Source: a virus
Taxonomy: Duplodnaviria; Heunggongvirae; Uroviricota; Caudoviricetes
Virus record (IMG/VR): IMGVR_UViG_3300021431_003088
Reading direction: 5' to 3' (one strand)
DNA length: 64,000 nt
Shown piece after piece: positions 2,851 to 63,900 of the stretch. Under the pieces are notes generated by a model. That model saw nothing but the letters and a program-made list of their open reading frames with translations. It had not been told where the DNA came from and ran no database searches. The first letter of the stretch is position 1; every line of letters starts with the position of its first letter. The position numbers were made by a program, and so were the translations under genes.

Positions 2851-2874
2851 TCAGTATAATTACATTGTATATAG

Positions 2875-3246: not shown

Positions 3247-3256
3247 ATATTCTTAG

Positions 3257-3330: not shown

Positions 3331-3338
3331 ATGCTTTA

Positions 3339-3412
3339 GGTGTCAGACGGGATTTGAACCCGCAACATTCGGCTTCACAAGCCGAGGCTCTAGCCAGTTG
3401 AGCTACTGACAC
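3339..3412 (-). tRNA. tRNA-His(GTG)
   Basis: anticodon stem TCGGC/GCCGA, loop TTGTGAA; no encoded G-1. Confidence 0.7.
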
Positions 3413-3414
3413 AG

Positions 3415-3485
3415 TTCGGACTAATGGAATCGAACCATTGTTATCTCCGTATCAGAGAGGTATTCTACCATTGAATTAAGTCCGA
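3415..3485 (-). tRNA. tRNA-Ile(GAT)
   Basis: anticodon stem CCTCT/GGAGA? (CCTCT...GGAGA), loop CTGATAC. Confidence 0.7.
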
Positions 3486-3489
3486 ATAA

Positions 3490-3563
3490 TTGGAATGACT
3501 GGATTCGAACCAGCAACCTCTTGAACCCAAATCAAGTGCTCTTCCAAATTAAGCTACATCCCA
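3490..3563 (-). tRNA. tRNA-Pro(TGG)
   Basis: anticodon stem CTTGA/TCAAG, loop TTTGGGT. Confidence 0.65.
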
Positions 3564-3716
3564 AAACATAAGCTGCAACCAAAATCTAAGGCTTCGAGTA
3601 TGGCTAACTCTTAGGGAATTTAACCCACCCATACAACAACTAGAGTAATTAATTCGTAGCTGTCATATTGAATTTCATAAATGTTCCGGACCATTTACAA
3701 AATCTTGCATCTTTAA

Positions 3717-3790
3717 TAGCGGATGTCGGATTTGAACCGACGTTCTTCTGGTTATGAGCCAGACGAGATAGACCTCTTCTCTAATCCGCA
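3717..3790 (-). tRNA. tRNA-Met(CAT) (elongator, initiator or Ile2 not resolved)
   Basis: anticodon stem TCTGG/CCAGA, loop CTCATAA; T:T mismatch at 1:72. Confidence 0.6.
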
Positions 3791-3865
3791 TAGGGAGTAA
3801 CGGAATCGAACCGTTCATCTTTGGCTTATAAGGCCACTGCATTAAACCTACTATGCTAACTCCCA
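3791..3865 (-). tRNA. tRNA with anticodon TAT (Ile-like, AUA-decoding)
   Basis: perfect T-arm AACGG-TTCGATT-CCGTT, D-stem GCAT/ATGC, anticodon loop CTTATAA; one G:A mismatch at top of anticodon stem. Confidence 0.5.
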
Positions 3866-3866
3866 G

Positions 3867-3940
3867 TGTCCTGTGATGGATTCGAACCACCGCTGCATAG
3901 GGCTTCGACCTATCGCTCTACCTGACTGAGCTAACAGGAC
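3867..3940 (-). tRNA. tRNA-Phe(GAA)
   Basis: anticodon stem ATAGG/CCTAT, loop TCGAAGC (unusual C33). Confidence 0.6.
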
Positions 3941-3944
3941 ATAC

Positions 3945-4017
3945 TCGGTCAGGTGGGAATCGAACCCTACGATTGCACGATTAAAAGTCGTGTGCCATAC
4001 CATTAGGCGACTGACCG
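3945..4017 (-). tRNA. tRNA-Lys(TTT)
   Basis: anticodon stem CACGA/TCGTG, loop CTTTTAA; acceptor CGGTCAG/CTGACCG; weak T-stem. Confidence 0.6.
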
Positions 4018-4084
4018 TTAATATTATGTTTTTGTTTTAGAATACTTTATAAATCGCATAATTTTTACTACCTTTCGTTTTTTC

Positions 4085-4156
4085 CGGGAGCTACAGGATT
4101 CGAACCTGTAACCCTTCGGTTAACAGCCGAATGCTCTACCATTGAGCTAAGCTCCC
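4085..4156 (-). tRNA. tRNA-Asn(GTT)
   Basis: textbook cloverleaf; loop CTGTTAA. Confidence 0.75.
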
Positions 4157-4159
4157 AAA

Positions 4160-4244
4160 TCCCGCTGCTTGGAATCGAACCAAGTTGGCAACTATGTACA
4201 ACAGATTTACAGTCTGCCCCTTCTCCATAAAGGTCTACAACGGG
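4160..4244 (-). tRNA. tRNA-Tyr(GTA), type II
   Basis: 85 nt; anticodon stem GCAGA/TCTGT, loop CTGTAAA; long variable arm. Confidence 0.65.
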
Positions 4245-4311
4245 CTATTAAGTTTACAATAATAATCAACCATATCAATCATCTCCTTTCCATTTCTATC
4301 ATAGGTGTATA

Positions 4312-4397
4312 TACAGGCGGTGAGATTCGAACCCACAAACTATAAAAGAAGTTACTAAATCCTAAGTTTAGCCTCTGTACCATTCGAGTACGCCTGC
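4312..4397 (-). tRNA. tRNA-Leu(TAG), type II
   Basis: 86 nt; anticodon stem CTAAA/TTTAG, loop CTTAGGA; variable arm AACT..AGTT. Confidence 0.65.
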
Positions 4398-4400
4398 TTA

Positions 4401-4484
4401 TACAGCCGACAGGACTCGAACCTGCACACCATTACTGATACCAGAGCTTAAATCTGGTGCGCCTACCATTTACGCCACGGCTGC
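4401..4484 (-). tRNA. tRNA-Leu(TAA), type II
   Basis: 84 nt; anticodon stem CCAGA/TCTGG, loop TTTAAGC. Confidence 0.65.
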
Positions 4485-4553
4485 TTGATTTTAAGTTTTG
4501 TTTAGCAATAATCGCAAGAGTCGCATAGTTAAATTCTCCTTTCATTTATTAAA

Positions 4554-4626
4554 AGTGGATAGTCGGACTCGAACCGACAGCCCAAGATTGGAAGTCTCGT
4601 ATGTTAGCCTTTAACACCATACCCAC
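4554..4626 (-). tRNA. tRNA-Gly(TCC)
   Basis: anticodon stem CGAGA/TCTTG (one GU), loop CTTCCAA. Confidence 0.65.
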
Positions 4627-4690
4627 GCAGGATAAGGAAGTGCCATTCTCTTATCCTTTATATTGTTTTATTAAGAGGCTTAGTGCCTCA

Positions 4691-4761
4691 CGGCTCTATA
4701 GAGAATCGAACTCTAATCTTATGATAGACAGTCATATGTGCTACCTTTACACCATAGAGTC
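4691..4761 (-). tRNA. tRNA-Asp(GTC)
   Basis: anticodon stem TATGA/TCATA, loop CTGTCTA (T37 unusual); A2:C71 mismatch. Confidence 0.55.
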
Positions 4762-4765
4762 ATAT

Positions 4766-5546: not shown

Positions 5547-5999
5547 TCAGCTTTCGTATATATAAATCATATCGAAGCCTTCGCTTTCACTTGGGCGTTG
5601 TATATTTTTATACATACGCTTAATAACGCCCTGTGGCACTTTTCTGTCTCGCTTACTGTTTCTTTCTAGCGCTGTCTCAAGTTCAACATCACAGAAGTGA
5701 CAATAAGCACTTTCATAAGTGCCTTTTAATGAAGAAAGCAAGTCTTTTCTTACTTCTTCATAAAGACAAGTAGCATCATATACCACCGTCTTGCCCTCTT
5801 TGAGGGCATTTTTTGTTCTCTCAAAGAGAAGTGAGAAGACTATTTGTCCGTCTCCCTGTACGGCTTCGTCACCGTACAGCTCTTCTCTTATTTTATCTGA
5901 AGAAAGCCAAATAGCTCCCTCCTCTCGACAGATATATCCTGCGATTGTGGACTTACCACTTGCAGGCACACCTGCCATCATGTGTAAAGTTCCTTTCAT
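5547..5999 (-). CDS. P-loop NTPase/kinase (AAA_33 / polynucleotide-kinase-like kinase domain)
   Basis: Walker A GVPASGKST near N-terminus; RBS AAAGGAGG before ATG at 5999. Confidence 0.6.
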   Translation of the reverse strand: MKGTLHMMAGVPASGKSTIAGYICREEGAIWLSSDKIREELYGDEAVQGDGQIVFSLLFERTKNALKEGKTVVYDATCLYEEVRKDLLSSLKGTYESAYCHFCDVELETALERNSKRDRKVPQGVIKRMYKNIQRPSESEGFDMIYIYES

Positions 6000-15401: not shown

Positions 15402-15457
15402 GCATTTCCTCCTTTCTACAAAAAAAGAACTCTTTTGAGTTCTTAGTCTATAATTAC

Positions 15458-15480
15458 TTTTTTATATAAGTGGAAAATAA
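15458..15480 (-). promoter_or_regulatory. conserved phage promoter motif copy
   Basis: ttttttatataagtggaaaataa; terminator hairpin agaactcttttgagttct just before it. Confidence 0.45.
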
Positions 15481-26304: not shown

Positions 26305-26320
26305 AATAAGAATATGTTAC

Positions 26321-26376
26321 GATTTTGAACTTATATATATATGTAGTTATTGGTAGAGCAAATGTTTGCTCTCTTT
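26321..26376 (+). promoter_or_regulatory. promoter/operator region of sigma factor gene; contains 18-bp perfect palindrome AGAGCAAATGTTTGCTCT
   Basis: near-identical 54-bp copy (2 mismatches) on the minus strand at 42279-42334. Confidence 0.55.
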
Positions 26377-26394: not shown

Positions 26395-26931
26395 ATGACG
26401 GAAAAAGAAGTGGAAAGGCTTTTTGCCGAAACCGTTCCTCTCATAAAGAGAATGGCTAACTTTAGCGTTTATAAGACATACAAGATTAGTTCGATTTATG
26501 TAGAGGAATTTGAGTCTGTTTGTAGGCTCTCTTTCGTTAAAGCAATAAGAGGCTTTGATGAAACACAAAATGTTGATTTTTCAACATATTTTGTGACTAT
26601 TGCTAGAAGAGATATTCATAGGGAGGCAAAGAAAATCCTAAAAAGAAAGGAATGTGCCTACTTAGATAATCTTTCTGGCAAGACTACTTGCGTTGAGGAC
26701 GATGTAGTAAAATCTGACATAGAATTATGTCTTGAAGAACTATCAGAAAGTGCCAAGAGCAAGCGTGTGAAACAAGGAGCGAAAGCTCTTCTGTTACAGG
26801 CAGAAGGCTATACCTTAGACGGTATAAGCCATGAAATGAAACTAAAAAGAAGTGTGGTTGATAAGTATATGAGTGTTGCTAAGCAATTCATAAGAAATAA
26901 CTACACTTTAGAGAGTTTCAAAACCGCATAA
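26395..26931 (+). CDS. sigma-70 family RNA polymerase sigma factor (region 2 + region 4 HTH)
   Basis: region 2-like FSTYFVTIARRDIHR; C-terminal HTH LLQAEGYTLDGISHEMKLKRSVVDKYMSVAKQ; RBS AGGAGGTG before ATG at 26395. Confidence 0.7.
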   Translation: MTEKEVERLFAETVPLIKRMANFSVYKTYKISSIYVEEFESVCRLSFVKAIRGFDETQNVDFSTYFVTIARRDIHREAKKILKRKECAYLDNLSGKTTCVEDDVVKSDIELCLEELSESAKSKRVKQGAKALLLQAEGYTLDGISHEMKLKRSVVDKYMSVAKQFIRNNYTLESFKTA

Positions 26932-37816: not shown

Positions 37817-38060
37817 TTTTTAATCCTTCTATTATTGTTTGTAAATTATCTAAAATTTTTTCTAAATCGTTATAGGCATCAACAAACAGGTCAATATCTT
37901 TTACTTTACTTTTACTCACAAGCTCGTCTGCCATTCGTCTAATCTCTCCACTTCTTTTTGTGAGGCATCTATCGTACTGCGACAGGGTTTTAAGCATATC
38001 CTTTTTATTGGCGTTGTTTGTTTTTTCTATTCTGCTTTCTATATAATCTCTATTTAACAA
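37809..38060 (-). CDS. hypothetical small protein
   Basis: ORF track. Confidence 0.4.
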   Translation of the reverse strand: MLNRDYIESRIEKTNNANKKDMLKTLSQYDRCLTKRSGEIRRMADELVSKSKVKDIDLFVDAYNDLEKILDNLQTIIEGLKNE

Positions 38061-38270
38061 GTTACCACCTACTTAATTATCAGGTCTGTTTTCACCATTA
38101 CATAGAGGTTTCCGTCAGTATCCTTTGCCTTTACAACATTATCTCTTTCGCTTAAGATTAGATATTCTTTGTTACTATATATGTTTAATGCCTTAATATT
38201 TATTTCTTCTTTCTTCTTTCTTCCCATTTGTATTCCTCTTATAGAATATTTTTAGCGAACATTTCCTGTC

Positions 38271-39206
38271 TTAAAATCTATAATATCCGTCTACCAATTC
38301 TTTTGTTTTTCTGTAACCATCACAAATAAGGTAGTCTTCTTCTGCTACTTCTAGCGTGATAGGACAATCAAGCTTCATATTTTCGTATAGGTCTAAATAT
38401 TCATATAGTGTGTTTGCACTATCTTCTGTAAAAGGCATACCGTGATTACCTTTTCCATAGCCATTGCCAATGGTATCTGACAAATGAATTAGCTTTAGAT
38501 AAGGCTTGTTCTTCTTAAAGTAGTTTTCTATGGTAAAGTCGCTTTTGTCTATATATTCTTCATAGTTACTAGACAAAAGTGTTGCTATCTTTTCACTTAT
38601 TGTTGCGTGACAGGTATCAAGTACCGTGCCTATTCTTTCTGTATGTAGTTGCTCTCTTAATGCCTTTACTATCTCTACATTGTCAAAGCCCCAGTTGTTA
38701 TTTAGATGTAAATACTCGTTTTGTTTATTTACTCTAAGTGGCGATACATTCTCTAGTCCAAATTCAATGCAAGGATACTTAAATAGCATACAACCTATGC
38801 CGTTAAGGACTCTTTTCCAGCCATCGCTCAACATTTTTAGGTTCTCTTTATGTTCTTCTGAATGTACTACTATTAATATGCTTTTGTTTTGCGATTTACC
38901 TATAGTATTTGCTAAATAACATACCTGATCTAAAAGTTTAAAGTTGAAACTATCACATAGTTGTTCTAAATTAATATCTGCTACACCTTTGTAAGAGAAA
39001 AGTGGTGCGTGAACGACACAAATATTATGGTTTAGTAGTGTTTGCAGATTCATTACCTCTTCTACATAGTAATAGCTTCCAAGTTCGTTATTTTTGAGAA
39101 GCTCACACATAAGCTGGATTTCTATACCATCACAACCTATCTTTTCTTTTATAGCAATATTATTTTCCTCGGCAATAGCTTTTGCGTATATTTGTGGTTT
39201 ACTCAT
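38271..39206 (-). CDS. xylose-isomerase-like TIM-barrel protein (AP endonuclease family 2 / Nfo-like)
   Basis: LDTCHA motif and HAPL/LENV-like segments; weak assignment. Confidence 0.45.
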   Translation of the reverse strand: MSKPQIYAKAIAEENNIAIKEKIGCDGIEIQLMCELLKNNELGSYYYVEEVMNLQTLLNHNICVVHAPLFSYKGVADINLEQLCDSFNFKLLDQVCYLANTIGKSQNKSILIVVHSEEHKENLKMLSDGWKRVLNGIGCMLFKYPCIEFGLENVSPLRVNKQNEYLHLNNNWGFDNVEIVKALREQLHTERIGTVLDTCHATISEKIATLLSSNYEEYIDKSDFTIENYFKKNKPYLKLIHLSDTIGNGYGKGNHGMPFTEDSANTLYEYLDLYENMKLDCPITLEVAEEDYLICDGYRKTKELVDGYYRF

Positions 39207-39381
39207 TCGTTTTATTCCTCAAAGGCAATTGATAATTATTAACTTCTGAAAACTTATCGCAGGCTCTATCAGTAGGCTCTACTATACATCCATCTAGCAT
39301 ACATTCGTAGTACACCATGTTTCTTCCTGCGTGTCTTACTGCGCATTTGCCACAGTTCTTACAGCATCTTTCACTACTCAT
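39199..39381 (-). CDS. Cys-rich small protein
   Basis: ORF track; overlaps neighbours by a few nt. Confidence 0.4.
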   Translation of the reverse strand: MSSERCCKNCGKCAVRHAGRNMVYYECMLDGCIVEPTDRACDKFSEVNNYQLPLRNKTNE

Positions 39382-39382
39382 A

Positions 39383-39829
39383 TTACATACCTTCCTTTAT
39401 TAAAAATTCGATTGTTTCTTTCGCAATTCTATATTCGTTTGCTTTTTCTCCTAGTCTATCTGCTATATTTCTAAGTCTTTCTTCATAGCCGACTTCTTTT
39501 CCAGCATCCTCTCCACTAGACTCTACGGATAAGTCTGCTGACCAAAGTAGAAGCAATTCCTCTGGTATTTTTGTTTTTCCAGTAATCTGCATATATTCTT
39601 TTGGACTATAGCCATGAAAACCTATAAATTCACTCATAGTTGAGTCTGGAAAAAGCATTGCTCCTCTTGCTTCGTGTTCTTCCTTGCCTTCGATATAGCC
39701 TATATCATGATTTAGACCTAGCATATAGCACTCTTCTTTTGTTAGGAGCTTACAGTTAAACTTGTCGTAGTTTTTATACATATATTCTGCTACGCCTATC
39801 ATATGTTCTAATCTATCTTTTTGTATCAA
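39383..39829 (-). CDS. HD-domain phosphohydrolase-like protein
   Basis: H..NHDIGY motif; track start is TTG, in-frame ATG at 39805. Confidence 0.45.
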   Translation of the reverse strand: MIQKDRLEHMIGVAEYMYKNYDKFNCKLLTKEECYMLGLNHDIGYIEGKEEHEARGAMLFPDSTMSEFIGFHGYSPKEYMQITGKTKIPEELLLLWSADLSVESSGEDAGKEVGYEERLRNIADRLGEKANEYRIAKETIEFLIKEGM

Positions 39830-40030
39830 TGCTTCTTCTTCTTTTCTAGTTTTTCTAATCTAACATTGGTAACACTTTGTTCTACTTTCATTTCATCGAG
39901 TTCGGCCTTCATGTCGATTATTTCTCGTCTTAATTGCCTCATTTCGTTTCTCATTTTCTTATACTTTAAATCTTGTTGATCCATTTTAAACCTCTATATT
40001 CCCTAAACTTTTAGAAAATAAATTTTTCTA

Positions 40031-40059
40031 CATTATTTATATAAGTGTAGTGCGAAGTT
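40031..40059 (-). promoter_or_regulatory. conserved phage promoter motif, extended subclass
   Basis: tatataagtgtagtgcgaagtt. Confidence 0.45.
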
Positions 40060-40084
40060 TCAAGAATTAACAAAATACTGGTAA

Positions 40085-40386
40085 GAACCTTGTATTTATG
40101 CGGATTTAGAGTAAATGAAAAACCCTTCTTTGAAAAATAAATAATATTTTTTAAGAAATTTTTACGGATTTCAGTGAATTATGACAAGTAATAAGTAGGG
40201 AGGAAAATTTTTTTCAGAAAAAAGTACGGAAATAGGTATGCAGTAGGACATATCTTTAATGAAGGAGAAAAAACTTTGGTGGAAACATCATAAATTTTGC
40301 AAGTAATAATTAGAAAGGCGGTGATCAAGTTGAGGGTATGAAATAAATAGTAGCAACAAGTAATAATAAGTAGGAGGATAAGAAAT
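40085..40386 (+). repeat. degenerate ~65-100-bp tandem repeats in the leader of gene 40387 (acgga(t/a)tt.. + caagtaataa.aagtagg.agga x3) with mini-ORFs
   Basis: seen in sequence. Confidence 0.4.
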
Positions 40387-40977
40387 ATGGATAAGGATAT
40401 TAGAACAGAGATGGAAAATATTTACAGAAGAATTAAAGCAAAAGAGGAAGAAGAAAGAATGGAAATTGACAGCATAAACGAAAGTTTGAATAAATTACTA
40501 ACAGACGAAGAACATTACCCATTAAGTAAAGGCTACGCTGAAGTGTTTAAACCATTAGTAGATAAGGTTAATAATGGCGAATTTGGTAGGAGTGGCACGG
40601 AAAAGAAACACATAATAGAATTTGTATTAGATTTTATTGAATTTGCGATAGATAAGATAGATTATAGTCTTGAGGATAGCCTAGTTAGGGGCTATGTGGC
40701 TACTGATTTACAAAAGGCTAACAAGAACCTATCTACACGAATAGAACTCATTCTAGAAGCGTATAGAGGCTTTGTAGACAGCCCTAGAGGTAGCGAACTT
40801 GATATAGGTGCTTTCTTTACATACCAAGAAGATTTCTACAAGGGTTATATGGAACTAGATGAAGAATATTATGATGAATATAACAGGTTTATATTACTTT
40901 CTTATTTTGAGAATAGGTTGCTTTGTCACTATCAGAAGAGTGTGTTTTTTGAAGTACACGAATTAATATTTCAATAA
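40387..40977 (+). CDS. hypothetical protein (plus-strand island)
   Basis: ORF track; RBS GTAGGAGGATAAG upstream. Confidence 0.5.
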   Translation: MDKDIRTEMENIYRRIKAKEEEERMEIDSINESLNKLLTDEEHYPLSKGYAEVFKPLVDKVNNGEFGRSGTEKKHIIEFVLDFIEFAIDKIDYSLEDSLVRGYVATDLQKANKNLSTRIELILEAYRGFVDSPRGSELDIGAFFTYQEDFYKGYMELDEEYYDEYNRFILLSYFENRLLCHYQKSVFFEVHELIFQ

Positions 40978-41019
40978 TGACACGAAGCCTAGAAAAACAT
41001 TTAGCAGCAACAATGTTTT

Positions 41020-41065
41020 GGTACTAACCGTATAGAAAAAACAAGACATCTATGCTATAATATAT
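41020..41065 (+). promoter_or_regulatory. sigma70-like promoter with extended -10 TGCTATAAT (41053-41061)
   Basis: followed by ~180-nt leader with hairpins (aaacatt..aatgttt; ccctagta..tactaggg). Confidence 0.45.
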
Positions 41066-41247
41066 ATGTAATTATAGGAGTTTTGGGAACGATAGTAAGT
41101 AATACATCATATATTGTTGTGTATATTTGGTGATATAATTATTTACTATAATTATATAGGGATTGCCCTAGTAACTTATTTATACTAGGGTAGGCGAATG
41201 CTTTCTCTAGTTTTATATAGATAAAATATAAAGAAAGGAGAGAGCGT

Positions 41248-41439
41248 ATGGAGGTGATTGAAGTGCGTAATAAAATCAAACCGTACAAAGGAAGATGGTG
41301 TCCTCGTTCAATCGCAAACGAGATAAATGATATGTTTTATAATGCGCAAAAACCAGATAGGACAGCTCTTGAAAAAGAATCTCAAGAATACCTAAACTAT
41401 CTTAGAGCAAAGAAATTATCTCGCACCGCAAGTAATTAA
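41248..41439 (+). CDS. small protein, candidate antitoxin-like partner of the downstream GNAT gene
   Basis: 63 aa; stop/start separated by 1 nt from 41441. Confidence 0.45.
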   Translation: MEVIEVRNKIKPYKGRWCPRSIANEINDMFYNAQKPDRTALEKESQEYLNYLRAKKLSRTASN

Positions 41440-41440
41440 T

Positions 41441-41998
41441 ATGAGAATACTTGAAGATGAATTTTTCTACTTAAAACACCTTGAAGAAATAGACGATTTG
41501 TCTGAATTTTCATCAAAGAAGGGATACGGATTAGAATATTATTTAAAAAATAATGCTCTTGGCGAAGAAAAAGCCAATATTTCCAGAACATACCTTGTTT
41601 TAAGTAAGGAAACAGAAAAAATTGTTGCTTATTTTACTTTAAGAACAGGTTTAATTACAATAAGCAGAGGATTTTTAAGAGGATTTGACACTTACACAGG
41701 TATCGAATTATCAAATTTTGCAGTAAATGATAATTATGATGAAAAAATCGAAAATATACCTAAGTTCGGTAGCCATATCTTCTTCCAGTTTGTATTGCCA
41801 CTCGTAAGAAAAATTGGTGAACTTGTAGGAGCATATTGTCTTTATATTTATGCTCTGCCATCCAATAAATTAATGGCACATTATCAAACAATGGGGTTTA
41901 CTATGACCTCGAAGCGTGTTGAAAGATATATTTATAGACACGTAAAGCCTTATTATGATAAAGGCTGCAGATTTATGTATCAAATTATTGATTCATAA
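41441..41998 (+). CDS. GNAT-family N-acetyltransferase (toxin-like architecture)
   Basis: R..G..G/A-like acetyl-CoA motif RKIGELVGAY, C-terminal YALP..KLMAHYQTMGF; tight coupling to upstream small ORF. Confidence 0.5.
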   Translation: MRILEDEFFYLKHLEEIDDLSEFSSKKGYGLEYYLKNNALGEEKANISRTYLVLSKETEKIVAYFTLRTGLITISRGFLRGFDTYTGIELSNFAVNDNYDEKIENIPKFGSHIFFQFVLPLVRKIGELVGAYCLYIYALPSNKLMAHYQTMGFTMTSKRVERYIYRHVKPYYDKGCRFMYQIIDS

Positions 41999-42007
41999 AG
42001 TATTCTA

Positions 42008-42036
42008 GCGTCACAGAATGTGGCGCTTTTTTTTAT
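42008..42036 (+). terminator. rho-independent terminator gcgtcacagaatgtggcgc + T8
   Basis: seen in sequence. Confidence 0.55.
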
Positions 42037-42065
42037 TGCGTGATCATATTTTGAGAACAGGTTAC

Positions 42066-42112
42066 ATTAAAAAAGAGGGAAGATCACACCATTGTGTAAT
42101 TCATCCCTCTTT
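42066..42112. terminator. bidirectional compound hairpin agagggaag..cttccctct flanked by A/T runs
   Basis: seen in sequence. Confidence 0.45.
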
Positions 42113-42280
42113 TATGGCTGATTTTAGTGTTGTCTGCCAACGGTTCCACATTTTTAATGCGAAATACTGTACGGATTATTCAGTGTTGTCCGCCAACGGG
42201 TATTTTAAATACCAATAGTACAGATTAAGATGTCAGCCACATCATAGGGAATGTCCCACTGGGGATATTCCAATTAAGAG
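42070..42280 (-). ncRNA. candidate ~200-nt non-coding RNA transcribed from the duplicated sigma-gene promoter copy
   Basis: no ORF >8 codons downstream of promoter copy; 19-bp direct repeats AGTGTTGTCYGCCAACGG at 42128 and 42181; ends at hairpin terminator. Confidence 0.35.
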
Positions 42281-42334
42281 AGCAAACATTTGCTCTACCA
42301 ATAGCTACTTATATATATAAGTTCAAAATCGTAG
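42279..42334 (-). promoter_or_regulatory. second copy of the sigma-gene promoter/operator (palindrome AGAGCAAATGTTTGCTCT)
   Basis: 52/54 identical to 26321-26376. Confidence 0.55.
42308..42331 (-). promoter_or_regulatory. promoter motif copy overlapping the duplicated region
   Basis: cttatatatataagttcaaaatcg. Confidence 0.4.
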
Positions 42335-42341
42335 TATATTC

Positions 42342-42692
42342 TTAGTCTTTTATTTTCTGATTCACCTTATCAAACACTGCCTTAAAGTAAACACCCTCGT
42401 AGTCTTTTTGTCTCTCTTCTTCTGTCTTTTCGCCAAAATGCTCTGGCGATATTCTTAGGGATAGAATACTCTCTAGCACTCTACCAGTTCTATTAGCCTC
42501 AATAGCGTTATAGACAACCTCATCAAAGTTATCGAGGATAACCTTTTCGCATTTATCCTTTGGTCCTTTACCATAGATAAAACCTGATTCATCTTCTCCT
42601 ATTCTAATTTCGCCTTTGAGCGCATGTAAGATTTCCTCTCTATCATATAATTTTGCTTGCTGAAAGCTAATTCCGCTTCCATATTTACTCAT
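42342..42692 (-). CDS. hypothetical protein, candidate partner (toxin-like?) of Panacea-domain protein
   Basis: 8-nt overlap with upstream gene. Confidence 0.45.
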   Translation of the reverse strand: MSKYGSGISFQQAKLYDREEILHALKGEIRIGEDESGFIYGKGPKDKCEKVILDNFDEVVYNAIEANRTGRVLESILSLRISPEHFGEKTEEERQKDYEGVYFKAVFDKVNQKIKD

Positions 42693-43188
42693 ATAAGTCC
42701 TCCTTAAAATACTCTCTTATTGCATCTATTGTAATTTCATTATTCATGTTTTGCTGATATGCGTTTTTCCACGTATCTTGGTTATGCGTTAATGTAACAA
42801 GTGATGTGGCGGAATAATTAGAAAAAGTATCTATTACTTCTCTTATTCTTTTTTTGTCTTTATCAGATATATTGTTATCATCAAAATACTCACGTTCTGA
42901 ATCCCATATATTATCATAATTTATTCTCATAATAGATTTCATTGTAGGGATATTTGTACTTCCAAATCTTCTATATTCGTAATATGCTCTAGGAACAACA
43001 GGTCCAAAATTCCAAGCCTCTATTTTGTCACCAAAACACGGTCTTTTTCTTTGTGTATTGATTAAAAAATATGCTTGAATGAAATACAATATTTTTTGGA
43101 GTTTTAGATTTGAAATGCCATACCCCTTATTGTTACTATATTCTATAGCATATCTACAAACTTCTAATACATCATATGGTTCTTTCAT
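42685..43188 (-). CDS. Panacea-domain (DUF4065 / SocA / GepA-like) protein
   Basis: NLKLQKILYFIQAYF...IEAWNFGPVVPRAYYEY matches the KLQKLLYYAQ...AW.YGPV.P..Y core. Confidence 0.6.
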   Translation of the reverse strand: MKEPYDVLEVCRYAIEYSNNKGYGISNLKLQKILYFIQAYFLINTQRKRPCFGDKIEAWNFGPVVPRAYYEYRRFGSTNIPTMKSIMRINYDNIWDSEREYFDDNNISDKDKKRIREVIDTFSNYSATSLVTLTHNQDTWKNAYQQNMNNEITIDAIREYFKEDLYE

Positions 43189-43223
43189 GATCTTTTGTCC
43201 TTTTTTTCTTTAAAAACCTTATA

Positions 43224-43454
43224 TTAATAAGCCAATCTCCCGATACTTAATTTCTTACATTTTGTCGTAAGAAGTGTCAATTTTCTTCCGCAAAATGGAC
43301 AATAATTGCATTGCAAATAATACGAAGCTCCATCATCTCCATAAAATGTTAAAATGTTTAATTCTTGAATAAAAACTTCTGCTTTATTATTTGAACCAAA
43401 TGATGTAAAATCTATAAGACCTTTTTCACAATAATTACATTTTTTATTATTCAT
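43224..43454 (-). CDS. zinc-ribbon small protein
   Basis: CNYCEKG...CNYCPFCGRKL. Confidence 0.4.
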   Translation of the reverse strand: MNNKKCNYCEKGLIDFTSFGSNNKAEVFIQELNILTFYGDDGASYYLQCNYCPFCGRKLTLLTTKCKKLSIGRLAY

Positions 43455-43489
43455 TGTATCAACTCCTGAGAGGTATCAACTATAAACGA

Positions 43490-43678
43490 CTAATTTAATT
43501 TCTCTCCACATAGAGGACAAAAATTAATTGCTTTTAAATATTCCCTACTTCTTTTTCTGTCATTTATTATCAATGTATTGATTTTTTTATTTATATGTAA
43601 TTCGTAATTTACTTTAACATTATCCATCATATCTTCTTGTATTAAAGTTTTTTCATTTTCACAATATTCGCATCCCAT
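43490..43678 (-). CDS. zinc-ribbon small protein (paralogue-like of 43224..43454)
   Basis: CEYCENE...CPLCGEKL. Confidence 0.4.
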   Translation of the reverse strand: MGCEYCENEKTLIQEDMMDNVKVNYELHINKKINTLIINDRKRSREYLKAINFCPLCGEKLN

Positions 43679-43735
43679 ATTGAACCTCGTCTAACTATTT
43701 ATCAAATTCATTTATCAGGGCTTCTTATTCTATCT

Positions 43736-44053
43736 TTACAAACACATTATGTCTTTTAACTTTTTTTTCATATCCTTTTGTCCGTCTGCATATCCTTTTC
43801 TATATAGATATGTTTTTTCAAAACCAGTGTTAGTTGACGATGGTGTGTATTTCTGTATGCAATTTGGTATGATTACATTATCTCGTGATATATTAAATAT
43901 ATCGCATATACCCGAAAACACATACGCTGGCATTGACTGAGTGCCATTTTCATAGGAAAGGTATGTCGTATAGGGTACACCTAATTCTTCTGCCAAGTCC
44001 TTTTTTGATAAACCGTAATCTTTTCTTAATGCATTTATTGTTTTCTTAATCAA
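43736..44053 (-). CDS. XRE-family helix-turn-helix transcriptional regulator
   Basis: LRKDYGLSKKDLAEELGVPYTTYLSYENG. Confidence 0.65.
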   Translation of the reverse strand: MIKKTINALRKDYGLSKKDLAEELGVPYTTYLSYENGTQSMPAYVFSGICDIFNISRDNVIIPNCIQKYTPSSTNTGFEKTYLYRKGYADGQKDMKKKLKDIMCL

Positions 44054-44094
44054 TATCCATTTCCTCTAAAATTTCAACTTCTTTACTGCGTTTT

Positions 44095-44421
44095 TTACTT
44101 ATCTTCTACCTCGTGCCAGTCGTATTCAGCTTCGATTTCGAAGATATCGCTGTATATATCAGCATCTTCATCATCACATTCATTTATAGTTTGTGCAGCT
44201 GTGCCTTTTTCTATTACCTCTATTAACCAAATTCCTTTATGGTTTTTTCCATAACTTGCTTTAATGATTGTGCCATCACTAAAACCTATCCTTACTACGC
44301 TATCGAAACAACCTATCTCGTCTGCTGGATAAGGTGCGCCCTCTATTATTACTAGATCATCTGAACAACCGTAAACTTTTGTCTTTTCCATAGTTTTTCT
44401 CCTACGATTTATTGCTTGCAA
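44095..44421 (-). CDS. hypothetical acidic protein
   Basis: ORF track. Confidence 0.45.
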   Translation of the reverse strand: MQAINRRRKTMEKTKVYGCSDDLVIIEGAPYPADEIGCFDSVVRIGFSDGTIIKASYGKNHKGIWLIEVIEKGTAAQTINECDDEDADIYSDIFEIEAEYDWHEVEDK

Positions 44422-44435
44422 TTAGTCTTCTTTGA

Positions 44436-44756
44436 TTATTGTAAGTTTTCTTCAACCTCAATAAAGCAATTAATATATCTATATTTCTTGCCATCGTAAA
44501 TAAAATTAATGTAACCACCACTACTATCAGTAATAACATTTGTAACACCTTTGTACTCGGCCATCTTTTCTCCATTTGCGGTGTATACAGTAATGTCTTT
44601 TGTTTGTGTTTTAGGCGGCGTATCAAAGCCAGTTACAAATACAAAAATTATTGCTATGCATAACATTACAAATATAGTGATAGCTATAATGCTTTTGATT
44701 TTTTCGATTTTCTCAAACTTTTTTGCGTCCATAAAAATCCCCTTATTGATTATCAA
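44436..44756 (-). CDS. membrane-anchored hypothetical protein
   Basis: ORF track; N-terminal TM. Confidence 0.45.
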   Translation of the reverse strand: MIINKGIFMDAKKFEKIEKIKSIIAITIFVMLCIAIIFVFVTGFDTPPKTQTKDITVYTANGEKMAEYKGVTNVITDSSGGYINFIYDGKKYRYINCFIEVEENLQ

Positions 44757-44776
44757 TTTTGGCTCTATGTTGATAT

Positions 44777-45208
44777 TTACTTTTCCTCTAAAATTAGACC
44801 TGTCAATTCATTTGCTCTGATACGATAGGCTTTTTGTGCTTCATATTCCGTGTATTCCTCTCCACATGAAAGGCAGTGAGAAAGAGGAAATTCAAGCAGG
44901 TCTTTGAGCGTCTTGATTTCATTCTTATGCTGTTCAACCAGAGCTGCAACAAATTTTTCGTGAGCTTCATGCGCATCCTTTTCTGTTGCGAATATACAAT
45001 TTTCTGTAGCCCCAAATGTTCCTTTGATATCTATAGAATGTAATTTATAGACACCTTGACCTGTACTTGATTCATGTTCCACATAATCAATAACTTCACA
45101 TTTCTCCGCTATGTTATATGGGCTATTAACATAAACTATTTGTTTGTTCTTAAATTTTTGCATATCGTTTATATCTCCTATAACCAATCGGAAGAACCCG
45201 GTTTGCAT
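44777..45208 (-). CDS. hypothetical protein
   Basis: ORF track. Confidence 0.45.
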   Translation of the reverse strand: MQTGFFRLVIGDINDMQKFKNKQIVYVNSPYNIAEKCEVIDYVEHESSTGQGVYKLHSIDIKGTFGATENCIFATEKDAHEAHEKFVAALVEQHKNEIKTLKDLLEFPLSHCLSCGEEYTEYEAQKAYRIRANELTGLILEEK

Positions 45209-45232
45209 CGTGTTTTGGGTTTATTTTGTTTT

Positions 45233-46291
45233 TTAATATTTAAAATCCATATCAGCGTAGTTTTCTTCTACTTGATTCTTTTGTACTTCCTGTGTGGCAT
45301 GAACTTCCTTTGTAACCTTAGAACTGTCTGGCTTAATACAAGGATCATTATCAACCTTTACAGTCTTCTTTTTGGTATTTATAGGTTGCTGATTTTTAAA
45401 ATCAAATGCTTCTGCCATTACTGACATATTTCCAATATTATCACCTACAGAGTCCATAATTGAACTTGGAATAAATACCTTGGTAGAGTTACCATTAGCA
45501 ATATCCTTCATAGCCTCAATACTCTTCATACGAAGGATTTGGTTAGTAGGCTGCGCTTGATTAAGTCGCTCTAAACCTTGAGCCTCTGCTTCATATACAA
45601 GCTCTATTGACCTTGCTTTGCCTTCAGCAAGAGCAATTTGTGCATCTCTTTCTGCTTGTGCAGCCAAAACCTTAGCCTCTTTATCACCTTCAGCACGTTT
45701 AACTGCTGACTCTTTATGTGCTTCTGCTTCGAGAACAGCTTGTCTTCTTTCTCGCTCTGCCCTCATTTGCTTACTCATTACATCTAAGATGTCTTGTGGT
45801 GGCTGAATAGTCTTAACCTCTACTCTGTTTACCTTAATACCCCATTTATCTGTAGCTGCATCTAATTCTGCTTCAAGTTGTGCGTTAATTTGATCACGAC
45901 CAGAAAGTGTTGTATCTAAATCCATTGTACCAATAATATTACGAAGTGTTGTAGCACAAAGGTTTTCTACTCCTGCGAGTGGATTTTCAACACCATAAGT
46001 AAATAATTTTGCATCTGTTACTGTTAGATATACAACAGAGTCAATATGCATTGCCACATTATCCTGTGTGATAACTGATTGTGGTGGAAAATCAAGCACT
46101 TGCTCTTTTAATGATACCTTACTTATAACTGCATCAATAAAAGGTATTTTAAGATGCACACCAGCATCCCACTCTGCTTTGAATTTTCCTAATCTTTCTA
46201 CAATGTACTTTTGTGTTTGTGGTACAATTCTTAGCGACATAAGTATTAACACTATTAAAATTGCTCCAATAATTCCTAATGCTATAAACAT
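45233..46291 (-). CDS. SPFH/band-7 domain protein (stomatin/HflK-like) with N-terminal TM and coiled-coil
   Basis: N-terminal TM then IVPQTQKYIVERLGKF; AEAEAxxxAxA repeats; locally higher GC. Confidence 0.8.
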   Translation of the reverse strand: MFIALGIIGAILIVLILMSLRIVPQTQKYIVERLGKFKAEWDAGVHLKIPFIDAVISKVSLKEQVLDFPPQSVITQDNVAMHIDSVVYLTVTDAKLFTYGVENPLAGVENLCATTLRNIIGTMDLDTTLSGRDQINAQLEAELDAATDKWGIKVNRVEVKTIQPPQDILDVMSKQMRAERERRQAVLEAEAHKESAVKRAEGDKEAKVLAAQAERDAQIALAEGKARSIELVYEAEAQGLERLNQAQPTNQILRMKSIEAMKDIANGNSTKVFIPSSIMDSVGDNIGNMSVMAEAFDFKNQQPINTKKKTVKVDNDPCIKPDSSKVTKEVHATQEVQKNQVEENYADMDFKY

Positions 46292-46430
46292 AATTTTAAT
46301 CTCCTCTTAAAAAATTATTCATTTTGCTGCTTTTCTTACTCACCATAGGGGGGCTGTCCTCTAATTAATCTCATAACTAATTCTCCTTTGCGTCTACTCT
46401 TCCGGTATTGGCTCAATCTCTAACTCTTTC

Positions 46431-46895
46431 TTACGCCTCGTCTACTTCTATTAGCGTTGGTACAGTATCTATGATTTTTTTAATGTTTTCTGCAATTACA
46501 TTATTAGGTTTATCTAAGTCAAGTAACTTTTCAATCTTATCAATATCTTTTAATCTTCCGTGTCCTTTTGGTAGCTGAACACCTCTTCTAACACATTCCG
46601 CAAGACAGGTATAATCTTGTGGGTGTGTTAAGTAGTATTTTGGTATTTTAACAACTACTTCAACCTGTTCTGACATAGTTATTCCCCCGCTTTCTGCCCA
46701 ATCTGGTACATTAGCAGTAGCAACAGCACCACCACCAATATCGTTGCAAACAGTAATTTCTTGAATGCCTAATTCACACCAAGTATGTCCCTTAGATTTA
46801 TCAGCTTCTACTGCGTCTACTCTTACTTCAACATTAAATTCATTATCCATGTTTTTACAATCTAAAAGCTTAATAATTACTTCCCTTACTGTCAT
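46431..46895 (-). CDS. hypothetical protein with LPKGHGRLKDID motif
   Basis: motif shared with 12001..12312. Confidence 0.45.
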   Translation of the reverse strand: MTVREVIIKLLDCKNMDNEFNVEVRVDAVEADKSKGHTWCELGIQEITVCNDIGGGAVATANVPDWAESGGITMSEQVEVVVKIPKYYLTHPQDYTCLAECVRRGVQLPKGHGRLKDIDKIEKLLDLDKPNNVIAENIKKIIDTVPTLIEVDEA

Positions 46896-51248: not shown

Positions 51249-51352
51249 AAGCTCCTAGCAGGACTTGAACCTGCAACAAGTTGTTACCAGCAATACACCT
51301 TCGGTATATTGCATACTACAAGGCAACTGCTCTACCGTTTGAGCTATAGAAG
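51249..51352 (-). tRNA. tRNA-Thr(TGT)-like gene interrupted by a ~31-nt hairpin-forming insert in the anticodon region (intron-like or disrupted)
   Basis: acceptor GCTTCTA/TAGGAGC, D-arm GCTC-AAACGGT-AGAGC, T-arm GCAGG-TTCAAGT-CCTGC are perfect; 5' half matches tRNA-Thr at 3174-3246; insert contains 10-bp stem GCAATATACC-GAA-GGTGTATTGC. Confidence 0.55.
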
Positions 51353-51362
51353 CGATTGGAAT

Positions 51363-54975: not shown

Positions 54976-55022
54976 CCTCCTTTAGCGAAAAAATAAGACC
55001 CTTTCGAGTCTGACCAACAATA

Positions 55023-55046
55023 CATATTTATATAAGTTGAAAAAAA
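55023..55046 (-). promoter_or_regulatory. conserved phage promoter motif copy
   Basis: catatttatataagttgaaaaaaatt. Confidence 0.45.
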
Positions 55047-60100: not shown

Positions 60101-60156
60101 ATTTCATTCCTCCTTAGAATAAAATAAGACACCAAATTAGTGTCTAGCCATCAATA

Positions 60157-60180
60157 CATTTATATATAAGTGGATTATTT
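60157..60180 (-). promoter_or_regulatory. conserved phage promoter motif copy (preceded by terminator hairpin agacaccaaattagtgtct)
   Basis: seen in sequence. Confidence 0.4.
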
Positions 60181-60189: not shown

Positions 60190-60236
60190 TGCTTCCAATA
60201 AAAAAAGAAAGAGGTAATTTCTACCTCTTTCTTTAG
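60190..60236. terminator. bidirectional terminator hairpin agaggtaatttctacctct immediately 3' of tmRNA
   Basis: seen in sequence. Confidence 0.5.
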
Positions 60237-60578
60237 TGGACTAGAGGGGAGTCGAACCCCTGTCCAAAAACCAATCCCCGACTCTTCTACGAGCGTAGTT
60301 TGTTATTTAGATTTCCCTCAACAACCCGAGAACAAACACCCTGATTATCTCAGTAGCTTCATGATACGTACATATATGCAAAGCTTAGTATATGCCGTTT
60401 CCTACATAGTTTGAAGCCTTAATCCTAAAGTGTAGGTGCGATAGGTAAGACTAGCTGCAACTAGGCAACTAATGCTAATTTCTCGTCGTTAGCAATTAAA
60501 TTTAATTTTGCCACTTTACGTATGACGCACGGCTCGCTTCTTTCGCTTCATGCTCCCTGTCGAAACCATTACTAGCCC
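60237..60578 (-). ncRNA. ssrA: tmRNA (SsrA); proposed tag ...ANDEKLALVA, possibly AKLNLIANDEKLALVA
   Basis: 5' GGGCTAG..ATGGTTTCGACAGGG pairs with 3' T-arm GGGGTTCGACTCCCC-TCTAGTCCA(CCA encoded); in-frame GCA AAA ...GCT AAC GAC GAG AAA TTA GCA TTA GTT GCC TAG resembling E. coli ANDENYALAA and B. subtilis layout. Confidence 0.7.
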
Positions 60579-61520: not shown

Positions 61521-61568
61521 CCTCCTTTAGCGAAAAAAAATAAGACTCTTTTGAGTCTGCCTACAATA

Positions 61569-61592
61569 CATATTTATATAAGATGAAAATTC
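61569..61592 (-). promoter_or_regulatory. conserved phage promoter motif copy
   Basis: catatttatataagatgaaaattc. Confidence 0.4.
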
Positions 61593-62215: not shown

Positions 62216-63900
62216 AATTTCTATATTTTTGTGTATAACAAAAAGGCTGTCTTGAGGCAGCCTGCTTAGTTATGTAATTACAATTCAGTATATTTATGAA
62301 TTGTTATAGATTTCTTTTACGCGAGCATAATAAATTCGTAAAAACTTATTTAATCCCGCTATCTTTGCTGATTTCTTTGCTTTTCCCTCAGCTTCTTTCT
62401 TTATTACATACTGATACACAGGATCATCTGGTCTAGGGCACGTTTTGATACATCGCATTGTCTCATAACCGACTTTTCTTAATGCCGCTGATCCACGCTT
62501 GGTAATTGTTCTATTACTACCTATAAATTGCCCCGACTCATAAGGTGGTGTATCTATTCCTGCATAAGCAATAAGTGCCTTGCCGCTATGGAATCTACGA
62601 ACATCACCTATCTCTGCTATTAATTTAGGTGCCAGTACATCACCAACCCCACCCATTTCTCTTACGACAGAATATTCAGGCAAGCTCTTTGCTAGTTCTT
62701 GCATTCGTGATAGTATTACTCCTAGAGTTGCATCAATTTCCTTGAGCACTCTAACAGCTTCAGTCACCAGCATTTTGACGGATGGGGTTTCTGAAGACAG
62801 TGTAGGAATACCTTCATGAGCTAGTTCATATATGGCCTTAGCCTTTGTCTGGCTCTGATGGTATTTCTTATCTTTTGCCCACGCAGCATAAGCGTCTATA
62901 AATTCGGACTCAGAATACTTTGTTATCTCGTCAAAGTGCCAAAACTGCTCGACAAAATCACTTAATTTATCTTTTCTATTTCCCTCGTTCCAGCTCGCTA
63001 ACATTGTTTTTATTCCAGGCATTGTATAATCCAGCAAATGTGTCAGTTCATGTAACGATGTAACATGCAATTTCATATAGTGTCGATATTGCTGACCAAG
63101 AAGCCTTAATTCTCCATATATATCTTCAGATACCTTGAATTCCTCCATAGTAAACCAATGTTCAATTCCATAGTTAGCGATTATTCTGGAATCTATTTTG
63201 TCAGTTTTAGCTTTTCTCAAACTTTCACTTCTATAAACCTTCATGAGGTATGGGTTAATAACAGTTACAAATATACCCTTTTCCTGCAAATACGTAAGAA
63301 CCGGAAGATGATAAATCCCTGTAGCCTCCATAACAACCTTTACTTCATCATCAAACTTAAGAATCATTGATGCTAATTCACTTAAATCTTTGTTCTGATG
63401 CTCAATGTCAAATGGCTTACACACAATTTCACCATATGGTTTTAAAATACACACAGTGCTTTTTCCTTTTGCCACATCAATTCCTACGCTAATCATAATT
63501 GACCTCCTTCAAACTGTAATAATCGCAATTGCTAATAACCACCCACACTTATTACAATCCAGTTTAGTTCGTTACACGAAAGCTCCATTAAGAAGTATCA
63601 ACCTGCCTAAGCGAATATACATAATAAGGGGTTGGTTGACGGTTTTATTGACGGATGTGATTAATCCAAAAAAGACCACGCCATACCAACTGCTTCCCCT
63701 ATTATATAAAAATAAGTGCAGATGCTAGAGTTAATTACTCTCTATCAACTACACTTTTATGGTAATCGAGTAGGAGGGATTTCTCATAAGTGAGAAATTC
63801 CGACCTCTCACACCACCGTGCGTACCGTTCGGTACACGGCGGTTCAATCAACTTAACAAGTAACACACCTTTTGGTGTAGTAATCTAACATTGAGACTAA
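62200..63900 (-). mobile_element. IS110-family insertion sequence (ends not determined)
   Basis: transposase ORF plus flanking hairpins (62240-62260; 63815-63850). Confidence 0.4.
62294..63496 (-). CDS. IS110-family transposase (DEDD-type)
   Basis: N-terminus MISVGIDVAKGKSTVCIL; 400 aa. Confidence 0.85.
   Translation of the reverse strand: MISVGIDVAKGKSTVCILKPYGEIVCKPFDIEHQNKDLSELASMILKFDDEVKVVMEATGIYHLPVLTYLQEKGIFVTVINPYLMKVYRSESLRKAKTDKIDSRIIANYGIEHWFTMEEFKVSEDIYGELRLLGQQYRHYMKLHVTSLHELTHLLDYTMPGIKTMLASWNEGNRKDKLSDFVEQFWHFDEITKYSESEFIDAYAAWAKDKKYHQSQTKAKAIYELAHEGIPTLSSETPSVKMLVTEAVRVLKEIDATLGVILSRMQELAKSLPEYSVVREMGGVGDVLAPKLIAEIGDVRRFHSGKALIAYAGIDTPPYESGQFIGSNRTITKRGSAALRKVGYETMRCIKTCPRPDDPVYQYVIKKEAEGKAKKSAKIAGLNKFLRIYYARVKEIYNNS

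Follow-up and report, generated by a model that had tools for sequence, protein, structure and literature searches.

The window analysed here is a stretch of 64,000 nucleotides (nt) of DNA, IMG/VR virus record IMGVR_UViG_3300021431_003088 (Caudoviricetes), which is treated below as part of a large phage-like mobile element. In it, a 343-nt gap separates a pair of minus-strand genes (42342-43188) from a convergent plus-strand pair ending at 41998. To judge from its sequence, this gap contains a full copy of a two-unit structured RNA, which in bacteria precedes genes encoding PBECR4 proteins. The RNA family was represented by a covariance model, named R1, for which 41 bacterial sequences, but not the window, were used and RNAalifold supplied the structure. 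The cmsearch scan of the window with this model detected the RNA on the minus strand, at 42244-42071, over its entire length (model positions 1-178 of 178), with a score of 103.8 bits and an E value of 4e-19; the second-best match in the window scored 9.8 bits. The RNA, its parts and the surrounding features are reported in Table 1.

Table 1. Features of the RNA locus and of its surroundings. Coordinates refer to the window; helix numbers are those of the covariation analysis of the bacterial family, and "fold" indicates the minimum-free-energy fold.
Feature	Position	Strand	Remarks
Core RNA, two-repeat family preceding PBECR4 genes (model R1)	42071-42244	-	cmsearch match over the full length
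Hairpin hp0, GAUG/CAUC stem	42229-42243	-	loop UGGCUGA pairs with 42115-42121; stem and loop-tail pairing covary (helices 1 and 2)
Variable hairpin, unit 1	42199-42213	-	paired in fold; the equivalent family helix 4 covaries
Repeat hairpin 1, GUUG-GCGGA-CAAC	42185-42197	-	within repeat 42182-42199; loop complementary to UCCG at 42172-42175
Variable hairpin, unit 2	42144-42164	-	paired in fold; the equivalent family helix 7 covaries
Repeat hairpin 2, GUUG-GCAGA-CAAC	42129-42141	-	within repeat 42126-42143; loop complementary to UCUG at 42221-42224
3' tail UCAGCCA, closes the fold on the hp0 loop	42115-42121	-	inverted repeat; fold; family helix 2
Intrinsic terminator	42069-42113	-	aligned to R1 positions ~135-178 with high posterior probability; homologous to the bacterial terminator between RNA and PBECR4 gene; followed by a run of six U
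Leader hairpin 2	42248-42271	-	paired in fold; occupies the slot of the bacterial 5' hairpin
Leader hairpin 1, palindrome AGAGCAAA-UG-UUUGCUCU	42279-42296	-	inside the duplicated cassette; paired in fold
Promoter-plus-hairpin cassette	42276-42333	-	96.6% identity over 58 nt to 26318-26375, inverted
Promoter-like motif TTGAACTTATATATATAAGTAG, element-specific	42305-42326	-	related motifs recur in the window; putative promoter
Other cassette copy	26318-26375	+	just upstream of the sigma-factor gene
Sigma-factor gene	26395-26931	+	Pfam Sigma70_r2, E 5.8e-06; likely start 26395 behind AGGAGG
Gene for a 116-amino-acid protein	42342-42692	-	upstream of the RNA; no family match or relative found
Panacea/SocA-like antitoxin-domain gene	42685-43188	-	Pfam PF13274, E 1.9e-21; upstream of the RNA
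63-amino-acid gene and acetyltransferase-like gene, convergent	41248-41998	+	phrog_1758 acetyltransferase, E 1.3e-22
Terminator of the convergent pair	42007-42027	+	terminator scan

A first-pass annotation, made from the letters alone, had proposed a non-coding RNA of about 200 nt in this gap, on the basis of two direct repeats, AGTGTTGTC(T/C)GCCAACGG. These are present, at 42126-42143 and 42182-42199, each with the GTTG..CAAC dyad that had been attributed to it, and a search of the window allowing up to three mismatches returned 2 matches, where 100 shuffles give an expectation of 0.00. The compound hairpin with a T run, in which the RNA was supposed to end, was found as a hairpin with 13-bp arms (42071-42113) followed by a T run on the minus strand; it is absent from a simple terminator scan, probably because its 17-nt loop is above the loop limit of 8 in that scan. 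Folding, suggested as a check, gave -75.5 kcal/mol for the minus strand from 42300 to 42060 (z = -5.64), a stability reached by 0 of 200 shuffles. The extent initially given, 42070-42280, was too narrow for the feature, since the homologous core covers 42071-42244 and the leader hairpins and promoter cassette extend it to 42333. The statement that no open reading frame (ORF) exceeds 8 codons was incorrect, as the minus strand contains ORFs of 22 (TTG), 21 (GTG), 19 (TTG) and 16 (ATG) codons; no Shine-Dalgarno sequence occurs in the 14 nt preceding any of the four. On the plus strand, a 66-amino-acid ORF at 42018-42218 begins within the terminator of the convergent gene. None of these ORFs appears to be a gene.

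Related loci were searched by using a relaxed pattern, made of two 13-nt repeat cores separated by a gap of 25-55. The pattern matched far more often than expected, with more than 118 metagenome loci among the matches listed, 104 loci in genomes, mostly of Lachnospiraceae and other Clostridia, and 2 matches in viral contigs; the exact 18-mer repeat gave 0 matches in viral contigs. Read on the strand complementary to that of the annotated repeats, these loci share a common architecture, which starts with a TTGACA-17-TATAAT promoter, followed by a 5' hairpin, hairpin hp0 and the two units. Each unit, of about 50 nt, is composed of an A-rich tail containing UCYG, a variable hairpin and an invariant GUUG-GCRGA-CAAC hairpin. 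After the units come a 3' tail, whose sequence is complementary to that of the hp0 loop, then an intrinsic terminator and, behind a ribosome-binding site, a gene of about 203-217 amino acids. At every locus viewed, the RNA element is oriented between promoter and terminator.

The structure was evaluated by a covariation test on ten helices, three of them pseudoknotted, in 77 sequences, aligned with MAFFT and kept below 85% identity by filtering. Paired cells amount to 93.5%, against 81.7% in shuffled alignments, and the observed value was reached in none of 500 shuffles. Changes on both sides were found in 30 of the 44 pairs, and when the partners were slid by 1-3 columns the paired proportion fell to 35-51%. 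The pairing between the tail of unit 1 and the loop of unit 2 is represented by CG in 46 sequences, UA in 28, UG in 1 and other combinations in 2, while the reciprocal pairing, between the loop of unit 1 and the tail of unit 2, is GC in 64, AU in 9, GU in 3 and something else in 1. The alternative, in which loop and tail of the same unit pair with each other, was rejected, since non-standard cells number 27 in one of its column pairs and 7 in a second one. The closing pairing of the hp0 loop with the 3' tail (helix 2) includes six covarying pairs, with 96.1% of cells paired, and the terminator stem covaries as well (helices 9 and 10). Being invariant, the repeat hairpins carry no information on their own. 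Each of their loops covaries with the tail of the opposite unit; the two units therefore pair with each other, in a pseudo-two-fold arrangement. The aligned sequences were ascertained by means of the repeat pattern, and since they are related to each other, fewer independent events lie behind the data than the cell counts suggest. The two-repeat element is a real structured RNA family.

No family of Rfam 15 corresponds to this RNA, either in the window or at its position in the 7 + 18 loci scanned. Thousands of unnamed candidate RNAs have been reported by Fremin and Bhatt (2021; PMC8040213), and the R1 RNA could be among them.

The RNA of the window has every helix of the family, together with the closing pairing GGCUGA/UCAGCC and both cross-unit pairings, UCUG/CAGA and CGGA/UCCG. 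The pair between the tail of unit 1 and the loop of unit 2 is in its U-A form, the repeat hairpins are 56 nt apart (family criterion 44-60, mode 50-53), and the two units are 75% identical to each other. Over the RNA, identity to the nearest bacterial copies is about 62-64%. By blastn, the bacterial loci resemble the window (71-78%) only over 42060-42244, the similarity ending at 42060-42063, just past the terminator, with no match in the rest of the region 38000-46500; the segment in common thus coincides exactly with the RNA plus terminator. The RNA region is also retained in a related DNA contig of a different study, which spans 41651-42489 with 31 gap positions and 46 differing letters. 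Among the differences listed, none falls within the 13-nt hairpins 42129-42141 and 42185-42197, although positions 42142-42143 adjoin one of them, and the small deletions are concentrated in unit 2, in its variable hairpin; the table of differences is incomplete, since 49 further substitutions and 11 insertions or deletions are not listed in it.

The genes following the RNA in bacteria were evaluated on 166 unique instances, 110 of which have at least 900 nt downstream, while the remaining 56 run into contig ends. A PBECR4 gene on the same strand was found complete in 72 of the 110, partial in 19 and missing in 19. At the 72 full-gene loci the protein match starts at a median of 85.5 nt past the second repeat; genes encountered where PBECR4 is missing include those for redoxin, DUF4238, Bro-N, a response regulator, a DDE transposase and an MFS transporter. 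All four downstream proteins tested match Pfam PF18813 (E 1e-30 to 3e-35), named PBECR4, "phage-Barnase-EndoU-ColicinE5/D-RelE like nuclease 4", a predicted RNase. The sequence ACAATGG in the terminator loop was considered as start codon of the toxin and judged wrong.

The association also emerges when the search is started from the protein. In the phages collection, the only PBECR4 relative found is in Erysipelothrix phage phi1605, where an R1 RNA (85.4 bits) lies directly upstream of the PBECR4-like coding sequence; a viral contig (L253) also carries a complete RNA-PBECR4 module. PF18813 matches were found in 16 of 301 sampled Clostridia genomes, and 18 of the 19 places in these genomes, together with 3 from another search, provided 21 PBECR4 loci, which were scanned with the R1 model. 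An R1 RNA is located directly upstream of the gene in 6 of the 21; in L266 a weaker match (56.9 bits) occurs at another position. A single PBECR4 query retrieved 548 cluster representatives at E <= 1e-10, and the label carried by such proteins in NCBI and UniRef is only "PBECR4 domain-containing protein". No description of a structured leader RNA paired with PBECR4 was found in the literature searched.

Scans of the PBECR4 proteins against Pfam, NCBIfam and PADLOC revealed no type III toxin family, PBECR4 being the sole significant match, and PHROGs returned nothing informative. A profile built on 41 PBECR4 sequences matched no PDB chain, ToxN and CptN included, at E values up to 10. The predicted structure of one member (m847087597c91, from locus L068), obtained with a pLDDT of 95.3 and a pTM of 0.89, has no clear match among solved structures (best Foldseek E against PDB 0.11; best Z in the wide VIA-align search 4.4). 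The fold searches thus speak neither for nor against a BECR or a ToxN-like fold, a missing match being compatible with relatedness.

In six other loci of the 21, the position directly upstream of PBECR4 is occupied by drum RNA (RF02958), with scores of 65-92 bits (L258, L260, L262, L263, L269 and L271); drum is also found at L059:4617-4729. The drum covariance model has no match in the window or on the R1 RNAs. Drum was described as a conserved motif with a 3' terminator, linked to a nearby protein, and its function was left open (Weinberg 2017, PMC5737381). It fills the same slot as the R1 RNA, between a promoter and, after a 3' terminator, the PBECR4 gene, but differs from it in sequence and fold and lacks tandem units. 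In the remaining protein-side loci, too, a leader of about 200 nt lies between a promoter and a terminator: a 32-nt sequence repeated twice in tandem was found in L272 (upstream of G263:C25:51074), a repeat of about 84 nt in L266 and L274, and a third conserved leader in L270, L276 and L277, none of them with an Rfam match at gathering score. A structured RNA, belonging to one or other of several unrelated kinds, is thus the general rule in front of PBECR4 genes, and the position of drum suggests that it too is a PBECR4-linked, antitoxin-like RNA. The link between drum and PBECR4 is not described in the main text of Weinberg 2017 or in the other literature searched, while the supplement of that paper might name the drum-associated protein. 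Within a group of four bacterial loci (L184, L190, L059 and L046), two R1 copies in series were seen at two, the succession abiF RNA, drum RNA and R1 RNA at one, and a DUF4238 gene in place of PBECR4, after RNA terminator and ribosome-binding site, at one.

In the window, the promoter cassette upstream of the core RNA is the element's own. The first-pass annotation had supposed that the promoter of the sigma-factor gene is duplicated in front of the RNA, and the two inverted cassette copies of Table 1 bear this out. The ORF of the upstream gene ends at 42342, and 9 nt past its stop codon the cassette starts, standing where the bacterial loci have their native promoter. Comparison of coordinates revealed at least 12 copies of the promoter-like motif that precede a start codon by 30-75 nt and have the same strand as the gene downstream. 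The recurring form, TTCAACTTATATAAATAAGTA, is found for example at 55020-55041, 61566-61587, 60154-60175 and 15454-15475 (-). A hairpin with a T run often lies within about 10 nt after the TTCAACTTATATAAATAAGTA motif, before the gene; many transcription units of the element may therefore have leader hairpins or attenuators. Leader hairpin 2 is found in the same place as the bacterial 5' hairpin but has a different sequence, so that the correspondence is one of analogy, without sequence homology. The common cassette, as the sole indication, suggests that the RNA may be co-expressed with the sigma factor, as originally proposed.

The organization of the bacterial loci recalls the one in toxin-antitoxin systems of type III (toxIN, cptIN, tenpIN), which consist of a promoter, tandem RNA repeats, a Rho-independent terminator and a gene for a protein of about 150-260 amino acids (PMC3401426, PMC13682666). 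The gene order is the same, and in those systems the RNA is the antitoxin, the toxin being an endoribonuclease that cleaves the repeat array into its units. The closest resemblance in RNA layout considered here is to tenpI, which has two non-identical pseudoknot repeats, averaging 50.9 nt in 2.2 copies (PMC13682666, PMC3401426); R1 likewise has two units of about 50 nt, whose hairpin loops are pseudoknotted to flanking single strands. As with type III repeats, some R1 units are near-identical and some diverged, identity being at least 90% in 39 of 142 unit pairs. The R1 loci differ from type III loci in encoding a PBECR4 protein and in having units tied by cross-unit and closing pairings, and the locus of the window differs from a type III operon in containing the RNA and terminator without a toxin gene.

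Two further systems are relevant for comparison. Pseudo-ToxI of Pectobacterium phage PhiTE is a phage-borne mimic of an RNA antitoxin which suppresses abortive infection, and it was met in laboratory escape mutants, which had expanded short partial repeats or captured ToxI (PMC3475682). The RNA of the window is similarly a non-coding copy of a putative RNA antitoxin, carried by a mobile element without the toxin gene; unlike pseudo-ToxI, it is a complete two-unit RNA with terminator, occurs in a natural element behind the element's own promoter cassette, and belongs to other RNA and toxin families. Its role is putative, whereas that of pseudo-ToxI has been shown in PhiTE. [quoted passage not shown] Like RCd22, the R1 RNA is a leader RNA of Clostridia with two copies of a conserved motif, placed before a putatively toxic protein; the two differ in that RF03085 has no match in the window and the AbiF protein family (Abi_2/AbiD/F) is unrelated.

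By analogy with these systems, the R1 RNA probably acts as the antitoxin of PBECR4, and the RNA in the window may serve as a decoy for a PBECR4 protein of the host. The reading favoured here, that the window carries an orphan RNA antitoxin used as counter-defence, is given about an even chance. It draws on the membership of the window RNA in a covarying family, on the tie of that family to PBECR4 genes and its type III-like traits, on the lack of a PBECR4 gene in the window together with the element's own cassette in front of the RNA, and on the retention of the RNA region in the related contig. The logic is the same as that of PhiTE pseudo-ToxI (PMC3475682), on which the reading is modelled, and the presence of an antitoxin-type Panacea-domain gene in the neighbourhood was also counted in favour of an antitoxin mimic. 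In the mechanism envisaged, the element would enter the cell and the RNA would be transcribed from the element's own promoter. The transcript would stop at the conserved terminator and adopt the pseudo-symmetric fold, in which each invariant GUUG-loop-CAAC hairpin would pair with the opposite unit's 5' tail. The folded RNA could then bind the putative PBECR4 toxin of the host and hold it inactive when infection would otherwise free it, so that abortive infection would be blocked.

Several observations weigh against the counter-defence reading. The linker of the window RNA is AUAAUCCGU, while the family consensus is AAAAUCCGA, and both its tails have G-U-A-C where at least 90% of the members have G-A; these departures could reflect decay, altered specificity or an uncuttable form. 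With 103.8 bits, the window RNA scores close to the bottom of the range of family members (90-171 bits). The loss of the toxin gene does not alone demonstrate a new role, since 19 of the 110 bacterial loci are orphan as well. A PBECR4 gene could lie elsewhere in the element, beyond the window, although a search of the 64 kb by tblastn with 55 PBECR4 proteins found none (best E 0.056), and 3' of the RNA terminator there is no ORF, the terminator of the convergent gene coming next. No virion gene is present in the 64-kb window, for which reason the term large phage-like mobile element is used in place of phage. On the side of the protein, toxicity of PBECR4 and its contact with the RNA are presumed by analogy, and its assignment as an RNase derives from the Pfam name alone, because the predicted structure matches no solved one. 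Lastly, among the contigs of four runs compared with 41000-44000, those from RNA libraries cover 41211-41896 only, which is the acetyltransferase pair; since contigs cannot show absence, this coverage says nothing on the expression of the RNA.

Some of these same facts would be expected if the RNA were an inert remnant, left by an RNA-PBECR4 cassette which was acquired or recombined and later lost its toxin gene. RNA and terminator would then survive either because the event is recent or as the terminator of the upstream operon. Toxin loss is common in bacteria, counting the 19 loci without PBECR4 and the 19 with a partial gene among 110, and the changed linker bases, the low R1 score and the lack of an observed transcript, uninformative as the RNA contigs are, point in the same direction. 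Against decay stand the integrity of all helices and of both pseudoknot complementarities at an identity of only about 62-64% to bacterial copies, the promoter cassette of the element abutting the RNA, and the retention of the region in a diverged relative from another study; a remnant is held to be unlikely, though the main competitor. The RNA might instead serve a PBECR4-type toxin encoded elsewhere on the element, forming with it a split but complete toxin-antitoxin or exclusion system and not a counter-defence. The window is only part of the element's genome, and complete RNA-PBECR4 modules do occur on the viral contig L253 and in phage phi1605. Against a split system, the gene directly follows the terminator wherever a full PBECR4 was found (72 of 110, at the median distance given above), no locus examined has a split arrangement, and no PBECR4 gene was found in the 64 kb; this possibility appears improbable.

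A role limited to cis regulation is given equally little weight. The RNA would in this case be a leader or attenuator of PBECR4 transcription in bacteria and, in the window, the 3' untranslated region and terminator of the Panacea operon. It fits with this that the RNA is always in the 5' leader, with its terminator before the gene, that the window copy comes right behind the upstream operon's stop codon, and that RCd22 also acts in cis on abiF (PMC12373285). Duplicated units, cross-unit pseudoknots and a closing pairing, however, exceed by far the needs of a terminator; bacterial orphan copies persist with their own promoters, and a separate promoter cassette is interposed between the operon and the RNA in the window. 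The proposals made with the first-pass annotation, a 6S-like RNA binding RNA polymerase or the sigma factor, or iteron-like DNA sites for a protein, are regarded as very improbable. They could appeal to the promoter cassette common to the RNA and the sigma-factor gene, and to the two 13-nt cores, reported as identical, 56 nt apart. Rfam, however, searched over the whole window at gathering score, reports nothing on the feature, 6S included, and the nine sub-gathering matches obtained in 41900-42450 at E <= 10 (best E 0.029) comprise no 6S RNA. The homologues are tied to PBECR4, and not to polymerase or replication genes, and point to a toxin-associated RNA. Binding sites on DNA fit poorly with repeats that are invariant 4-bp hairpins inside a fold whose other stems are maintained by compensatory changes, in an element always placed between promoter and terminator. 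What stands of the initial idea is the structured non-coding RNA, enclosed by the duplicated promoter and a terminator, through the full-length covariance-model match and the covariation of the family.

A wider proposal, more tentative than that of an orphan antitoxin in the window and put at somewhat less than even, is that PBECR4 and its leader RNAs constitute a fourth and so far unrecognised type III-like toxin-antitoxin or abortive-infection family, found in Bacillota, and that large phage-like elements of gut Lachnospiraceae naturally carry promoter-swapped decoys devoid of the toxin. The two-repeat RNA, drum (RF02958) and at least three further types are counted here as leader RNAs. In this view the altered linker of the window copy could even let the toxin bind the RNA and fail to cleave it. 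If the counter-defence reading is true, the window would provide a natural mobile element in which a complete RNA antitoxin, without toxin, is wired to the element's own transcription programme, while the known parallel, PhiTE pseudo-ToxI, was recognised via laboratory escape mutants (PMC3475682). Type III-like pairs and antitoxin mimics are known; the different protein family, the different RNA and the promoter swap would be new. Since drum fills the same slot in other PBECR4 loci, a directly testable role, as PBECR4 antitoxin, could be assigned to it. The pairing of RNA and PBECR4 is common in Clostridia of human and animal gut, and may shape phage-host dynamics there.

As to the genomic setting, the 64-kb window has a G+C content of 35%, and nearly all its genes are on the minus strand. 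They include 21 tRNA genes and one transfer-messenger RNA (tmRNA) gene, together with genes for a primase, a helicase, a topoisomerase, a RecE-like exonuclease and a DNA methyltransferase, and many without family match. A blastn search of the region 41000-44000 against the phages collection gave no match. Relatives of the Panacea protein identified 29 viral loci, which have that gene in common but not the RNA; relatives of the sigma factor led to one distant viral locus, which is uninformative. The 116-amino-acid protein has no family in Pfam, PHROGs, PADLOC or NCBIfam and no relatives in the viral or metagenome contigs searched, and the possibility that it is a PBECR4 relative was ruled out by hhalign (probability 0.13%). 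One related DNA contig, belonging to another study, has 255 other letters in place of the Panacea gene and retains the 116-amino-acid gene and the RNA. The convergent genes for the 63-amino-acid protein and the acetyltransferase-like protein (41248-41998) resemble a pair formed by a small antitoxin and a GNAT toxin; the contigs covering 41211-41896 come from three RNA libraries of different studies.

Some minor features concern other parts of the window. The tRNA array (21 genes), an adjoining polynucleotide-kinase-like gene (phrog_505) and the tmRNA, with tag ANDEKLALVA, are located at 2381-4762, 5547-5999 and 60236-60578, and together make up a large tool kit for translation and RNA repair for a mobile element. 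An Rfam tRNA match of 104 nt at 51250-51353 (-), with a score of 53.2 bits, was not called by ARAGORN and possibly represents a tRNA containing an intron or insertion. Two genes of transposable elements lie within the element, one TnpB/IS605 OrfB-like, with a Cas12f1-like TNB domain, at 1009-2157 (+), and the other encoding an IS110-family transposase at 62294-63496 (-).

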